From Octopus vulgaris (taxonomy: Eukaryota): DNA of 64,000 nucleotides. Where the stretch lies: contig OX597839.1 of the NCBI GenBank assembly GCA_951406725.2, positions 3,348,001 through 3,412,000 of the forward strand. Direction: 5' to 3'. The notes under the pieces are model-generated. The model ran no database searches. It worked only from the letters and a program-made list of their open reading frames with translations, and was not told the DNA's origin. Shown here piece after piece: positions 5,128 through 63,903 of the stretch; positions within the stretch are counted from its first letter, which is position 1, and each line of letters opens with the position of its first letter. The position numbers and the translations under genes are program-made.

Positions 5128-5510
5128 GTGGAGGCGCAATGGCCCAGTGGTTAGGGCAGCGGACTCGCGGTCATAGGATCGTGGTTTCGATTCCCGACCG
5201 GGCGTTGTGAGTGTTTATTGAGCGAAAACACCTAAAGCTCCACGAGGCTCCGGCAGGGGATGGTGGTGATCCCTGCTGTACTCTTTCACCACAACTTTCT
5301 CTCACTCTTACTTCCTGTTTCTGTTGTACCTGTATTTCAAAGGGCCGGCCTTGTTACTCTCTGTGTCACGCTGAATATCCCCGAGAACTACGTTAAGGGT
5401 ACACGTGTCTGTGGAGTGTTCAGCCACTTACACGTTAATTTCACGAGCAGGCTGTTCCGTTGATTCGGATCAACCGGAACCCTCGTCGTCGTAACCGACG
5501 GAGTGCTTCC
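5128..5510 (+). mobile_element. SINE family C (tRNA-derived), young copy with TSD
   Basis: A/B boxes TGGCCCAGTGG / GTTTCGATTCC, TSD ATATAGAGATA. Near-identical copies at 11473-11859 (-, TSD TGCTAGAAAAAT) and 55971-56355 (+, TSD ATCTTTATAGG); related heads at 29187, 45375 and 62011. Confidence 0.88.
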
Positions 5511-5551
5511 ATATAGAGATAATATTTTTTTGTTTGTTTCTCTTTTTTCAG

Positions 5552-5863
5552 AAACTTGCTCAGGATTTCCTCGATAAGAAACTTGAAGCTGAAACTTTCG
5601 TGGAAGATTACATCATGCAGCGCAAAGAGGCCCACTTGAAGAAAGTGAAAGTTGAGAAGATGACGGATTTACTGCAGAGTCGCAGCCTCTCCAGGCGAAC
5701 GCAGTCTGCTCACCATGCTTCCACGCCTTCCCTCTGTAACCATTCTTATTACGACCGAAATGAAGCCAACATCATACCCACTAGCGCCAGCACTCAGTAC
5801 AACGTGGGATCTACACCGTCAAGGCCCTACATGAACATGCCAGACCCGTCTAGTTATTTCTAA
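5552..5863 (+). CDS. VPS37: VPS37 terminal coding exon
   Basis: ttttcag|AAA acceptor. Encodes KLAQDFLDKKLEAETFVEDYIMQRKEAHLKKVKVEKM (Mod(r) C-terminal helices), then a P/S/Y-rich tail ending at TAA 5863. Confidence 0.9.
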   Translation, partial: KLAQDFLDKKLEAETFVEDYIMQRKEAHLKKVKVEKMTDLLQSRSLSRRTQSAHHASTPSLCNHSYYDRNEANIIPTSASTQYNVGSTPSRPYMNMPDPSSYF

Positions 5864-7558: not shown

Positions 7559-8592
7559 CAAGGCTGAGTCAAAAAGTAATGCCATTTTGTTTAGGACAGG
7601 TATAATTACCAACACAGGAACATGTATCATGTATCATGCATCAAAATGGAGCTGGTCCTCTGTGGATCACATCCCTACTTCTCAACATAATCACTGTTTC
7701 TCTCAGTAGCACTGTTCTGCCTTCGAATGAGAGCATGTATCTCTGGCCCGTAAAATTCTGTTGACTGTTTTTTGAGCCACTTCTTCAATACTGTTTTCAC
7801 TTCCTCGTCACTGGAATAATGTTTGCCTCTCAAACCCTCTTTCATGGGGTCAAAGAGATGATAATCTGAAGGTACTAAATCTGGTGACTTTGTTTGAGAA
7901 GTTCAGTGCAGGCATTGACCCTGTCAGTCTTGCATTCAGTAGTCAGCTCTCTCAGTACCCAACAGGAACACACTTTTGAAAAGCCAAGTGATTTGACAAT
8001 GTTGTAAGCACTTCCTTAGCTCACTTCAAGGTTTTCTGCCAACTCATCAAGAGTTGTGCGCCTGTCTTCTCTGATCAGGGCATCTGCTTTTGCTTTATTG
8101 GCAGGATTCACAGAAGCGGACGGATGGCCAGAACGGGGTTTATCGGCTACACTCACAGTTCCCACCTTTTCATCTTTCAGACGATGGACCCACCTGTATA
8201 CATTGCTATAATTTAAAGTATTGTCTTGATAGACATTTTGTAATCATTGGTGAATGTTCACAAGGGTTTTCCCTCTCAGCAACAAGAAATTCAATCACTG
8301 CTTTTTGTTTTTGATGTAACTTTAAGAGGGCAGCCTTTTTGAATTTTCCTTATTAGTCTAAAAACAATCGTTTCATGCGACTTCATTTAATTACATAATG
8401 CAAGTATTACATTAGTTTTAAAATGTAGAGCAATCTTCAGCTGCATATGGAATTTTTTAGTTAAATTGAAAAGATTCATTTTTATACTTATTCCATTTAC
8501 CAACATCACAAAGAGGGTAAGTAAATAAACAGAGGGACCAGTCTCATCAACAGAAACATGGTAGTAAAATGCATTACCTTTGGATATCCTTG
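7559..8592 (-). mobile_element. Internally deleted mariner transposon
   Basis: Imperfect TIRs CAAGGCTGAGTCAAAAAGTAATGC / GCATTACCTTTGGATATCCTTG. Minus-strand relics QKAVIEFLVAE, IREDRRTTLDELAENL..WVLRELT and PDLVPSDYHLF. Confidence 0.85.
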
Positions 8593-12889: not shown

Positions 12890-14485
12890 TATGTGAAATA
12901 GAAAGATGAATAATCTTGTAGTAGATTAATCAAAAGTTAACCGATACCTTTCCGGAGGCACAGCCTCTTCCGCTCCCGGTTTAATGCTCAGTAGGAATAA
13001 TTATAGTAGTAATAATGATATGAGAGCCAGTACAGTGACACATAATCTCAGCTCCAGCCAGGGAGTACCCACTAGGGGTATAGTTATAAATAGGGGTGTT
13101 GTGGTTGACGGTAACAATGGGAGTAGGGTAGAGAGCCCCAATAGCAACCCCAGCATCATTTCCCGCAATAGCAGCACCACGGGCACTAGCAATGACAGTA
13201 CTCTGATAGATAGTGGAGAATCAGGGGTTATTCCTATAGTTAATAGTGACGTAGTGGAAAATAGAGTAGTAAGCGGCTGCAGGTCTCGGAACGAATATAG
13301 TGACAGGAACGCAGTTCTAATTTCAGAAACTAATCCTAGCAGATTAAGATTTACGTCGGCGAACTCCAAGATCAAAAACGCCGTCTACCAATGCAAGGTT
13401 TACACGGACTCAGATGTCTTCACTTATGTAGGGGCATCATCCTCAAGATTGTCTTTGCGTGTCTCCAATCATTACGCAACTTTTCGGGACGTGAACAAGC
13501 GCCAGACCACGGGACTCAGTAAGCTAATATGGCGACTGAAGGATACGAACTTAAGCTACAGGCTGGAATGGTCAATTTTGTCGGTGGCCCTCCCATTTGA
13601 TAGGGGCAGAAGACAGTGCAACCTTTGTGTCTCCGAACTCTTCCATATTTTGTTTGCCAGAGGCCGGATGGTAAACGGGCTCTTACAGTCGGCTTTTCGA
13701 TGCCCCCATTGGCGGCGTTACACTTATCTGGCTTTTAAATAGCGTTTATAAATAATACCGGCACCCATAGCCCTTGGTAACAAATTCTGAAATAGCCTTT
13801 AAGATATCTACGATTATCCACTGCAAGGGGAATTACTCCTGTAAGACAAACGGGGCTTGGTTTTTTCACAGCGGGGGGTTTCCTTGACAAGGTAGGCTTA
13901 GATGAACACACACACACATAAAACATAATATATATATATATATTTTTTTCTTTCTGCCACCCAACGGTTATCACGGCAGTAGCCACTGACAGCCGAACGA
14001 TCAAACGCACACACGTACACAAAAAATGTTATCTACCCCTACGCCAACACACACATATATAGAACAGTATACACACACACACGTCTCTAAGTAGATTTTT
14101 TCTCGCCCCTTATAAAACATCCAATATTCCTTAAATAGTCAGAACTTTATTCTCGGTCACTAAGAACATCTATACACCCTCACCCACTTGATTGACCGAT
14201 GCCTGACCTGTAGAATTCTTCAGCCACCGGTTCTCAGCATACACTGATAAACAGTTTCGCCATGGGCTCTTAGGAGCATAGTTCGATTTGGTTTTTGCTC
14301 CGCCTCTGTTCTGTTTTTGTTTCTCTAGCGGATTTCCTTTTTTCTTCCTGAAGAGAAAGACACAATATGGTCCCATTATTCAATCGGATTTTGGTAATTT
14401 GTGCCTTTCGAAACACGTGTAGAATGAAATAAAACGATTTCTGTTCAATCTGCGTTCAGCTCCATTTCTTCAATTCACCAATAAT
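12890..14485 (+). mobile_element. 5'-truncated Penelope-like element with C-terminal GIY-YIG endonuclease
   Basis: ORF 12984-13742 ends NAVYQCKV..FTYVGASS..LRVSNHYATFR..TTGLSKLIWRLKD..LEWSIL..CNLCVSELFHIL, typical of the PLE GIY-YIG domain. Flanked by (TA)n, with an HHR 3'-half remnant GAAACACGTGTA at about 14410. Confidence 0.8.
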
Positions 14486-25662: not shown

Positions 25663-26970
25663 TTAATGGTAAACTTCGACAAAAGGCATTCCATACACAG
25701 AAAATTCCATAGTTCTTGCCATCTTTGATAAACCTTCTGTTTCTATATGATTTTGGTATATTTCTTCGGGAAATATCAATCCTTTTCTGTGACAGTCTCC
25801 TCGAACGAGAAGACTGCAGCCACCAACGCCGTCTATGGGTACCAGACGACCCTCTGCACGCAGGTGAGGTAAATACAGCCGATTTGAGGGACCGTATCCC
25901 TCTAGAACCAATTGGTTTGGCGGTAGGTGTTTTTGCTTTTCCCATGATAAATTTGTCTCCCGCCAAGTGTTCTTATCATAAACTCTTGTGTTGACTCCAT
26001 CATGAAAAAGGCAAGATGGAACTACAACATCCTTGTCAGCTGAGATTAGCTGCTGAACCAAGTCACCGGGTATGCGTGACACGTCGCTGTCAATCCACAT
26101 GACCCATGTTTCGTCTTTCAGACTGTTCCGTAAGAGGAGATTACGTGATTTCGCCAGATGGCTGCGCCGTGACAACTGCATTGCGTGATCATGCACGACA
26201 CTCCATCGCCCAGTTATTTGACCAGTTAAGTTAAAGTGAAACAGCCTGGCTGTTTTGAATATGCGGGACAGTTCCTCAACAACACCCTTTGCCACAATCA
26301 ACGTTTCGTCAGTGCTACAGTCCTCACCGAGTGCCACTGATACCAGGTGGCGAGGATAGGTCAAATTCTTCAGTAGATTAGTATAGTGATTCAAATGATC
26401 AGCGACATTATGAATTGGAGTCAAAATAAGAACTTCTTCTGTGTATTCTCGTTTTGGTAACGTTAAGAAATGATTTATCACAGGTTTTGGTATATAAGGA
26501 ACTGTGTCATCAACAGACACAGGGGGCACATCAGGTATATGAAAACGTTTTGGAAAATTGTCTTTTTTCAAGGCCTCTTCTTTTACATGTTTTGTTTCGT
26601 GAAAACTTTTTGGATTAGATTGCTTGATATCAGAATTTAATTTTTTAGTAACATTTTTTGGGATTACATTTTGGTGCGTCGTCATCTGTTTGGAATGTAA
26701 TTTAGAAATATTTTTTGCCAATGTAGAAGCTGTGACGACATTGCGGTTAGTGTGCCACGCAGCGTTGCCATGTTGGGAACTTGTCTGCCGAGTAGTTGCA
26801 TGGCGCAGTAAATCTTCTGGCAAAGACTTCCTGATGAGCTGGAAATTTGAAACAGCTATTATCCTCAGATGTGAACCAAGCAAAGCGTAGACCAAACAGC
26901 AGAGCAGAATGATTATTGCTAAGCTCCCACAGAAACTCCGTCGGTTGGAGAATCTCCTGACGATATACAT
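25663..26970 (-). CDS. Anp1/Mnn9/Van1-like (GT62, GT-A fold) type II membrane glycosyltransferase, 435 aa, CDS in one exon
   Basis: Short basic N-tail, one TM helix (LAIIILLCCLVYALLG), a stem region, then VLILTPIHN, LTYPRHLVSVALGEDCSTD, RRSHLAKSRNLLL, the DxD motif WVMWIDSDV, YDKNTW, DGVGGCSLLV and HIETEGLSKMA, matching the Anp1-family motif order. A splice acceptor (ttcgttacag) lies at about 27097 in the 5' UTR. Confidence 0.88.
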   Translation of the reverse strand: MYIVRRFSNRRSFCGSLAIIILLCCLVYALLGSHLRIIAVSNFQLIRKSLPEDLLRHATTRQTSSQHGNAAWHTNRNVVTASTLAKNISKLHSKQMTTHQNVIPKNVTKKLNSDIKQSNPKSFHETKHVKEEALKKDNFPKRFHIPDVPPVSVDDTVPYIPKPVINHFLTLPKREYTEEVLILTPIHNVADHLNHYTNLLKNLTYPRHLVSVALGEDCSTDETLIVAKGVVEELSRIFKTARLFHFNLTGQITGRWSVVHDHAMQLSRRSHLAKSRNLLLRNSLKDETWVMWIDSDVSRIPGDLVQQLISADKDVVVPSCLFHDGVNTRVYDKNTWRETNLSWEKQKHLPPNQLVLEGYGPSNRLYLPHLRAEGRLVPIDGVGGCSLLVRGDCHRKGLIFPEEIYQNHIETEGLSKMARTMEFSVYGMPFVEVYH

Positions 26971-28026
26971 TTGCTAGCTGACATTCAAAGAGCTTGAATG
27001 CTGGTGGTGACAGGAAATGAGTATTAGAATGTCTGGATTAGAACCGTCTTCGATGCTGCTCTGTTCGTCTGCCAGATGTGTTGGCCAGGATGACGTCTGT
27101 AACGAAAGAAGACAAAAAAAATGTAAATAAAGATGTGAGAATTGTGCGTGAATTAGTGAACGGCAGCAAATGAAATTTTGTCGAGAGAATTATGAGAGTT
27201 CACCGTTTATTGACTACGAAAAATTGTTTAATATTTGGACAGAGGCTTATACGAACTAATATTAAACTATTTTTTTTTTATTGTCAATATACGGTGAAGG
27301 CTCATAATTCTGTTTACAAAATATAACTAAACAATAAAAAAGAAAAAAAAACAACAACAAATATACTGTAAATATTAATTTGACTCTCATCACACTGGCA
27401 CTCACCCATTTCTACTCTGTCTATTACACACACACACACACACACACGCACGCACATATACACACGCACATATACACACGCACATATACACACGCACATA
27501 TACACACGTACACATATACATGCCCTCACTCTTATTTCTTTCACTTAAACATTCTATCTCACACAGTCATACACACACACACGCTGATGTTCCAACGTAG
27601 TCTTCTATTTTACAACTATATACACCTCACTCTCTCTCTCTCTCTCTCTCTCCCTCTCTCTCTCTCTCTCTCACTCCTAGTTTCACTCACTGCCATTCTT
27701 CCTCACCCCCCTCTCTCACATTTCCATCCATTTTTTTTCTCTTTCTTTACCAGGTTTCATGCGGTCGCCCCCCTCCCATCATATTTCTCTTACAATCCTT
27801 CTCTGTCTCCCAATCTTCCTCTACCTCTCCCCCTCTCTCTTTCTCTCTCCAATTCACTTTCTCTCCGCCTCTCTCTCTCTCTCTCTCTTCCAACCCCACT
27901 CATCCTACCCCTCACATCGTATTCCACAAGGGTCTTTTTTAAATAAACTAATTTATCTGACATTGTTTTCATTTATTCCAGGCAATTTGTACGATAGTCG
28001 TGATAATGGAAACGGTATAGTAGAGT

Positions 28027-43799: not shown

Positions 43800-44485
43800 A
43801 GTGACTAGGGTGTTTAAAAATACCTACATTGCTAGTAATAAGAGCTAAAATGTTCTAATGCTGTAGTTAACGGACACGAATAAAAACGTATATACTAACA
43901 GGGACGATAATCGTCCGAAAAATACCGACCGAGAATTCCTAAGACTGACGCGTCAGTTTCGGCAATTTCCATTGCCATCATCAGTTAAGCCAGCTCGGTG
44001 TTCGGCTGTTACCAGGTCTATTTGTCTATTAGCATATATGTTTTTGTCATCCAAATTAATGGATGATTTAGCGATTCGCTAATGTGTAAACACAAAAATT
44101 AATGTAAACAGCAGGTTGTAATATTTCATCAAGAAAGAAAACTATAATTGCCATTAAATGTGGCTAGCGTGTTAAAAATACCTACATTGCTAGAAATAAG
44201 GGCTAAAATGCTCTAATGTTGTAGTTAACGTACATGAATGAAAACATATATACTAACAGGGGCCATAACTGTCCGAAAAATACCGACCGAGAATTCTTAA
44301 GACTGATGCGTTCCTGTTAGTGTATAGGTTTTCATTTATGTGCGTTAACTACTGCATGCTCTAGTGCTCTTATTTCTTATTTTAGCTCGTATTTCCAGCA
44401 ATGTAGGTGTTAATTAACACCCTGGTCACGCATTTAGTGACAATTGTAATTTTTCTTTTTTGGTGAAACATTGCAACCTGCTGTT
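43800..44485 (-). repeat. 358-bp HHR-bearing unit: about 1.4 tandem copies plus a partial inverted copy
   Basis: 43808-43952 repeats at 44169-44311 (aagactga offset 358 nt); 44312-44485 is a diverged reverse complement of the same unit. Confidence 0.8.
43938..43989 (-). ncRNA. Type I hammerhead ribozyme, apparently intact
   Basis: Minus strand: CTTAA-CTGATGA-T-GGCAAT-GGAA-ATTGCC-GAAA-CTGACGCGTCAG-TC^TTAGG. Both core boxes, 6-bp stem II with GNRA loop, stem III, GUC triplet and 5-bp stem I (extended by CCGAG/CTCGG) are present. Confidence 0.92.
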
Positions 44486-44496
44486 TATGTTAATAT

Positions 44497-44530
<34 letters not shown>

Positions 44531-44590
44531 CTAGTTAGGTTGATATACATAGACAGACAGACAGATATGTAGATAGATAGATAGATAGAT

Positions 44591-44670
<80 letters not shown>

Positions 44671-44717
44671 GGATAGATAGGTAGATAAACATAGGTAGAT
44701 AGATAGACAGATAGATG

Positions 44718-44778
<61 letters not shown>

Positions 44779-45328
44779 GTTGATAAATAGATAAACATAG
44801 GTAGATAGATACATAGCTAGATAGATAAATAGACAGATAGATAGATAGATAGATGTGACCTTCAAAAACGGAAGTATATCAACATTTGTTTTCAAGACTA
44901 GATAAAAATTGATATATTCATACTGTCAGCCGATCCTAATTGGTAATATTAGTCGACAAGGATTTCTAAGTCACAATATACGAATGAATTTTATCATATA
45001 TTATAGTTAGTCAGAGCATGTGCATTTGCACAATTCATGTCTAAAGTGTAATTTTTTTTTTATGTGAAGGAAGGTGGGTGTTGGGATGATTTACAATGGC
45101 CCACAGGGCTATCCCAAATCACTGATGTGGTCGAGGGAAAAAGTAAGGCCGATACAACCAGGAATAAGTGCCGTCGCAGATGTCGGTGTCAGAACACAGA
45201 GCCGGAACATAATACACACCAATATTGCATTGCTTGCCGTCCAGTGCTCTAACAACTGTTTGTCTGTCTGTCTGTCTCCTCCTCTCTCTCTACCCCCTCT
45301 CCTCCACTCTCTCTCTCTCCCTCTCCCC

Positions 45329-63851: not shown

Positions 63852-63903
63852 TGAGCTGAAGAGAGAAATGTTGTTTTGACTAATCTTGAAACGTACGTAC
63901 TCA
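63852..63903 (+). ncRNA. Type I hammerhead ribozyme in the inverted copy of the 545-bp repeat
   Basis: tgagCTGAAGAgagaaatgttgttttgactaatcttGAAAcgtacgTActca read directly on +. Confidence 0.85.

Follow-up and report, generated by a model that had tools for sequence, protein, structure and literature searches.

We identified, in a 64-kb window of the Octopus vulgaris genome (the whole stretch of DNA analysed, positions 3,348,001 to 3,412,000 of contig OX597839.1), a locus that we think is probably a decayed 1.4-unit copy, with an inverted arm attached, of a dispersed 358-nt animal retrozyme, likely inserted by a Penelope-like element (PLE) from a likely circular RNA and bearing a hammerhead predicted to work as a dimer. 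The hammerhead is real, the element is real and of retrozyme type, and the copy is old; folding models indicate that the element is likely dimer-dependent. Numbering the unit from the first base after the hammerhead cut (u1), the locus comprises the following features:

43801..44311, minus strand: sense arm of 1.42 units, from u348 to u141 (alignment to the unit)
43925..44005, minus strand: complete type I hammerhead with extended stem I (sequence, folding and descriptor search)
43944..43957, minus strand: palindromic stem III of 14 nt, forming a 14-bp duplex in the predicted double hammerhead (dimer folding)
43943..44300, minus strand: 358-nt monomer between two GUC sites, no ORF, predicted to be highly paired (folding and ORF check)
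44026..44259, minus strand: long closing stem (44259-44240 paired with 44045-44026, approximate limits) that covaries between families (folding and covariation)
44097..44143, minus strand: "tail" between the preferred 3' ends of the family, u158 = 44143 and u204 = 44097 (copy ends)
44283..44311, minus strand: upstream half-site with the 3' half of stem III, GUC (C44301) and the 3' strand of stem I, without catalytic core
44312..44498, plus strand: inverted 5'-truncated arm from u38-41 to u203, with ~2-nt overlap at the junction and a 15-nt insertion
44499..44854, no strand: microsatellites, (CA)n and (TAGA)n, bordering the inverted arm on its 3' side

The sense arm is joined head-to-head to the inverted arm of ~0.45 unit, and the locus carries one complete hammerhead core. 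The initial annotation had reported a second copy of the cleavage site 358 nt away and cut off inside stem III, and this is borne out: the second GUC site, at 44301, lies exactly 358 nt from the first within a 140-nt direct repeat (90% identical), and this copy is truncated inside stem III at 44311, immediately before the inverted arm begins at 44312. The inversion that it described is also real, but not the higher divergence ascribed to the inverted copy, which differs from the family majority by 8.0% vs 8.5-8.7% for the sense arm and seems worse only because of its 15-nt insertion. Cleavage of the upstream half-site by the lone core was considered as well and was rejected; it is feasible as a two-strand model, but its probability is below 0.01 in the full RNA.

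The hammerhead has CUGANGA and GAAA boxes, an NUH site and three helices, with helix I open. Stem I consists of 5 bp (CUUAA/UUAGG, 43989-43985 with 43942-43938) and resumes beyond a 4x4 internal loop as ACCGAG/CUCGGU, while the core (43984-43957 overall) contains the CUGAUGA box at 43984-43978 and the GAAA box at 43960-43957. Stem II (43976-43961) has 6 bp and a GGAA loop, and the GUC site ends at C43943, after which cleavage is predicted. Both core boxes, the 6-bp stem II capped by GGAA, the GUC site and the extended stem I had been recognised previously and are all present, but an extra U at 43977, between A9 and G10.1, had been missed, and the sixth stem II pair is a minority state in the family (66 copies at this column: C in 49, T in 12), likely reflecting CpG decay. 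A full three-stem descriptor found one hammerhead in the 64-kb window, whereas all 100 dinucleotide shuffles were negative, so the motif is not due to chance. Rfam returned no hammerhead match, neither at gathering score nor at E<=5. Elsewhere in the window, further hammerhead-core matches lie at 63856 (+), 63287 (-), 62742 (-), 61792 (+), 60186 (+), 50638 (+), 51299 (+) and 26373 (-), three of them identical and placed as direct and inverted copies.

Stem III (43957-43944) is a perfect 14-nt palindrome that gives only 5 bp within a monomer, contrary to the earlier reading of a long stem III able to fold in a single molecule. It begins with CUGAC, resembling the core, and the CUGAUG of the core can pair with its 3' half. 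In the folding model this inactive helix is favoured over the active monomer fold by 3.5 kcal/mol, an energy that excludes Mg2+ and tertiary contacts, which could offset the difference. The first stem III pair of the active monomer fold has a predicted probability of 0.005 (at most 0.014 in longer contexts), and the monomer is predicted to misfold, with an active fraction of about 0.5%. For the dimer, the minimum free energy structure is a double hammerhead 12.5 kcal/mol below two monomers. The majority sequences of both families behave in the same way, and the models predict that cleavage takes place in the dimer and that a single hammerhead would not be fast. PMC4209133 describes metazoan and PLE hammerheads that cleave as dimers, have a palindromic helix III and carry an extra base between positions 9 and 10.1.

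The initial annotation had instead proposed efficient cleavage, supported by loop-loop contacts, with this locus as its best candidate. That the motif acts at this locus as a fast monomer, with loops I and II docked, is in our view unlikely, although several observations would fit it. The locus is among the 7 of 57 full hammerhead copies in which core and stems are intact, and the loops (CUGG/AAUU and CGGAAA) are identical between families while the stems covary. Docking in fast hammerheads involves a 5' U and an extrahelical pyrimidine in loop 1 and a free 3' A in loop 2, according to PMC2632901. Loop II, which is CGGAAA in 26/57 copies with the C:A opposition seen in Schistosoma, fits the RNnA or C:A pattern with a free 3' A, and the 4x4 loop I is also as in Schistosoma (PMC2632901); coral and mussel motifs, moreover, cleave as monomers (PMC7229834). 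However, loop I has A and G where the contact motif of PMC2632901 has U and a pyrimidine, and mussel motifs without those bases are slower, at about 0.1 per min (PMC7229834). Against a fast monomer stand also the 5-bp stem I, the small predicted active fraction, the conservation of the palindrome and the failure of 8 of 9 tested Xenopus dimers to cleave. A transcript through both arms is predicted to form a long hairpin between them (P 0.97), pairing sense with inverted sequence. The calculations do not support efficient monomer cleavage: the inactive helix is preferred, the Schistosoma-type contact bases of loop 1 are missing, and the locus has a single complete core, an inverted arm and ~8.5% decay.

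Searches of the 2.8-Gb genome with DNA queries gave 818-1,893 first-look candidates each, 40 of which were scored per search; 138 loci were collected, 86 of them unique, and as most were picked by long matches, long arms are over-counted. Other copies preserving the core and the unit length, whose absence would have spoken against the initial interpretation, are numerous genome-wide. Among the 40 scored per search, the nearest are 76-86% identical to the arm in the window. The unit has a GC content of 0.36, no LTR, one type I hammerhead and no ORF (longest frames of 41 aa sense and 71 aa antisense), and it shares with animal non-LTR retrozymes a non-coding unit of 150-450 nt with one type I hammerhead, GC below 50% and no LTR. 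By unit, hammerhead and predicted fold, we assign the element to this group on sequence grounds, with only partial tandem repetition. The earlier identification as a non-LTR retrozyme with a 358-nt unit is upheld by copies that keep core and length, by the lack of an ORF and by a fold that covaries with a sister family. The 126 segments lie on average 10% from the family majority outside CpG, and by this measure the family is old and ~10% decayed. A 22-nt motif of the unit has 402 exact genomic matches, which at 10% decay suggests ~4,000 arms, sister families included; the family is probably a dispersed, ORF-less one of thousands of arms.

The longest arm spans 1.78 units and none of the 86 loci reaches 2 units; one 67%-identical sister copy measures 1.91 units. 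The cleavage junction is crossed by 89/124 arms, and twice by 13/124; two near-complete cores are present in 5 of 6 checked loci. Thirty loci obtained with a 65-nt query have a median arm of 0.65 unit (16/30 crossing the cleavage junction), and 30 loci taken in genome order have a median of 0.44 unit (8/30 crossing it and 8/30 with an inversion). Queries of 1.4 and 1.6 units retrieved no tandem array among their best matches, neither 16 exact matches to the core nor the first 100 of 402 to the 22-mer include a tandem pair, and the 86 loci include no young master copy or array. In place of the multimeric arrays that the initial annotation had suggested looking for, the searches found many dispersed copies, all of less than 2 units in the 86 loci. 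Two subfamilies differ in the stem I extension (C-G in 22 copies vs U-A in 16, with C-A or U-G in 11) and also in the extra U and in a GUC vs GUA site. In contigs of four sequencing runs, presumed to be RNA, matches are mostly below 95% identity and none spans the whole stretch of the locus, which has no bearing on expression of the locus; a depth peak over u70-126 in those contigs fits many short copies plus sister families, and a 30-nt loose-end motif taken from them has 0 matches in the genome assembly (G000).

The majority sequence folds as a circle at -117 kcal/mol (z -10.6), compared with z -3.0 for the copy in the window, and the predicted fold brings the two cut ends of the unit together. 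A sister family, C, has a 347-nt unit, 276/358 positions identical to the 358-nt family, and the same ends and fold:

L148 4412-4165, minus strand, and L150-L179: 347-nt sister family (219 first-look candidates)

We tested covariation on 116 pairs predicted from the 358-nt family alone, using majority sequences in one alignment. Against family C, 81 pairs are unchanged, 8 remain paired via one change and 10 via two, 10 are broken and 7 gapped; the permutation null gave 1.9 double changes and 24.4 breaks, and 0 of 5000 permutations reached either observed value of 10. The covarying parts are stems I and II and the long closing stem, the loops being invariant between families, and from this covariation we infer that the unit has been selected as a folded RNA. 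Stem III is palindromic in three forms, with centres CG, CGCG and CCGG. At least one further sister variant, 67-84% identical to the majority, was observed (L198, L209, L212 and L217-L220), with L198 extending over 1.9 units. DNA repair can create local direct and inverted repeats, and the locus could in principle be a DNA-level duplication or satellite relic in which the hammerhead is incidental. This is highly improbable given dispersal over many contigs, fixed 3' ends with variable 5' ends and covariation at the RNA level.

The retrozyme copies have the marks of PLE insertions, i.e., a partial tandem, an inverted 5'-truncated arm, a tail with two 3' ends and an AT-rich or microsatellite target. 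The marks given for Penelope-like insertions in 10.1101/2021.04.23.441226 are copies in partial tandem, a 5'-truncated copy in inverted orientation and, optionally, a tail. An inverted arm is found at the 5' end in 38/86 loci and at the 3' end in none of the 86, and in most of those 38 loci the gap at the junction of sense and inverted arms is no more than a few bases. The main arm ends at u140-170 in 30 loci, u171-194 in 7, u195-221 in 39 and elsewhere in 10 (86 loci); inverted arms end at u140-170 in 17, u195-221 in 9 and elsewhere in 12 (38 loci). Both arms have in common two 3' end clusters ~46 nt apart (u~158 and u~204), the second blurred as the unit itself is TA-rich there. A microsatellite lies within 30 nt of the end in 54/86 loci vs 62/516 control spots, and 5' ends are scattered, without a common upstream sequence. 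In the experiments of PMC11167929, a purified PLE protein cut and extended both strands of AT-rich DNA, reverse transcription started at two internal RNA sites bounding the tail, and insertion in vitro did not need hammerhead cleavage. The ends at u~158 and u~204 would be reverse-transcription start points, fitting this two-site start.

Both ends being downstream of the cut, a linear monomer produced by cleavage would yield at most 0.6 unit, so that longer arms need either a circle or an uncleaved multimer as template. We lean towards the circle, since no array was found. The same element and PLE route with an uncleaved linear multimer, transcribed from a master array, is a lesser possibility. 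Unprocessed RNA was the main substrate of one PLE in vitro (PMC11167929), the monomer hammerhead is predicted to be slow and the test for a common template is weak: repeats within a locus differ by 0.148 vs 0.168 between loci (30/40 lower), and inverted and sense arms by 0.146 within vs 0.160 between loci (21/33 lower), too small a difference in both comparisons to prove a single template molecule. Against the multimer are the searches with multi-unit queries, exact cores and 22-mers, which retrieved no array, and a fold that brings the cut ends together.

No RT/GIY-YIG ORF was found within the unit or abutting it in sense among 143 unique loci, and none of three PLE-type families examined has a terminal repeat resembling the unit. 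These three candidate partners, rejected because their terminal repeats are unlike the unit, are the young PLE with the 899-aa protein (its end lies at 12930-13742 of the window) and the PLEs of L148 and L226. We also consider it improbable that an autonomous PLE, with full copies unsampled, has the unit simply as its terminal repeat (pLTR). In favour are traits shared with pLTRs (the extra 9/10.1 base, palindromic helix III, tails and inversions), the relation of Xenopus retrozymes to pLTRs and a scoring depth of 40 candidates per search. Against it, arms continue head-to-tail around the entire 358-nt unit without an intervening ORF, their 5' ends are scattered without common upstream sequence and no PLE abuts in sense in the 143 loci.

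Separately, the window contains, at 12930-14420 (+), the 3' end of a young PLE-type family with at least 150 matches at 98-100% identity. It has an 899-aa ORF, tandem units ~3,624 bp apart and a hammerhead-like motif at 14348, and its sequence is unrelated to the 358-nt unit. Pfam and PDB gave no name for the 899-aa protein, the middle of which is placed by the Atlas with animal HTH/RT clusters. We take these ORFs to be PLEs from RT and GIY-YIG motifs read by eye, beside the Atlas placement and the repeats. Hammerhead-like motifs at 1802 (+) and 24754 (-) of the window match the terminal repeat of the L148 PLE, 7378-5430 (-). The window also holds, at 25663-26973 (-), a 436-aa open frame that may encode a glycosyltransferase and, at 5495-5863 (+), an exon-like frame that we assume to belong to a host gene.

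One locus, L226 (G000:C1 near 132.194 Mb), found by tblastn, contains an arm of a sister-variant retrozyme fused head-to-head to a near-full PLE:

L226, 7612-4990 (-) with 7611-7941 (+): PLE/retrozyme arm fusion, candidate two-template insertion

The retrozyme arm runs from u127 round to u157, is followed by a TA repeat and is 74-77% identical to the majority; the PLE begins about a dozen codons into its ORF and extends to its own terminal repeat, and the two arms overlap at the junction in a TATA-like sequence common to both. Other copies of this PLE continue into their own 5' sequence, and the junction is unique among 30 loci examined. This PLE type is also old (74-85% identical to L226), with two end points beside TA repeats and a hammerhead of its own. 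The locus suggests a lead to the mobiliser of the retrozyme superfamily. The chimera is 1 of 143 unique loci and lies in a sister variant, the outer end of its PLE arm abuts another insertion, and it may instead reflect a later deletion joining two neighbouring insertions. A second candidate was rejected, as its RT fragment abuts the arm head-to-head but lacks its 3' end:

L014, 1276-1500 (= L147, 7527-7751): 225-nt RT fragment abutting the 5' end of an arm, inverted

Under our preferred explanation, that of a dimer-dependent retrozyme inserted by a PLE from circular RNA, two hammerheads in tandem would dimerise via the palindromic stem III and cut out a monomer. The single hammerhead left on that monomer would be trapped in the inactive helix, keeping the ligated circle intact. 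A PLE protein would nick AT-rich or microsatellite DNA and, on each strand, start cDNA synthesis at u~158 or u~204; cDNA would cross the ligation junction and stop early, and two such cDNAs would be joined head-to-head. The family would now be largely dead. More tentatively, these threads may combine: a single PLE integration would have copied both its own mRNA and a retrozyme circle at L226, naming the carrier PLE of the superfamily despite the lack of common terminal sequence, with stem III mimicking CUGA and locking the lone hammerhead of the circle so that only tandems cut.

The element is of a kind already known and this copy is old. How animal retrozymes return into the genome is so far a matter of proposal, and the old copies of the 358-nt family, with their PLE-type ends, offer a fossil record of it. 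Covariation among at least three diverged sister families defines a conserved RNA fold, one chimeric insertion points to a specific PLE, and the behaviour of single vs paired hammerheads bears on how a ribozyme-bearing circle avoids cutting itself. A literature search, outside which lay Repbase, subscription papers and the supplement of PMC7229834 (which could list cephalopod repeats), found no description of the 358-nt family or of a PLE/retrozyme chimera.

Described retrozymes are mainly tandem repeats, and PLEs are the proposed mobilisers of animal non-LTR retrozymes (PMC7229834, bioRxiv 10.64898/2026.07.22.740005, PMC6155905, PMC7761336, PMC8557442). Among animal non-LTR retrozymes, the octopus element comes closest to the 350-390 bp repeats reported from Mytilus galloprovincialis (PMC7229834), which it resembles in unit size, low GC, lack of an ORF and one type I hammerhead per unit, as well as in a highly paired predicted circle, loops without the archetypal contact bases and PLEs in the same genome. 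Unlike the mussel retrozymes as presented there, the octopus copies are dispersed arms of less than 2 units with PLE-type ends and no arrays seen, and the unit has a long palindromic stem III and a predicted inactive monomer, its circle being putative. With vertebrate retrozymes, interpreted as non-autonomous PLE derivatives (bioRxiv 10.64898/2026.07.22.740005), it shares dispersed, monomer-size copies and a proposed dependence on PLEs. The vertebrate link comes from co-occurrence and pLTR similarity, whereas ours comes from insertion shape and one chimeric locus, with no homologous pLTR found; the locus in the window, having one complete hammerhead, lacks the "two consecutive complete hammerheads" used in that study to recognise active copies. 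As in the PLE pLTR hammerheads of PMC4209133, there is an unpaired base between 9 and 10.1, a palindromic helix III and a dimer working mode, here predicted. The inverted 5'-truncated arm, two 3' ends and AT-rich targets are as described for PLE insertions (PMC11167929; Craig et al. PMC8557442). In contrast to the PLEs of PMC4209133, PMC11167929 and PMC8557442, the element has a 358-nt unit without an RT/GIY-YIG ORF, a full helix III and an extended helix I, and its tail measures about 46 nt, compared with the 30-40 nt given for PLE tails in the same three sources.
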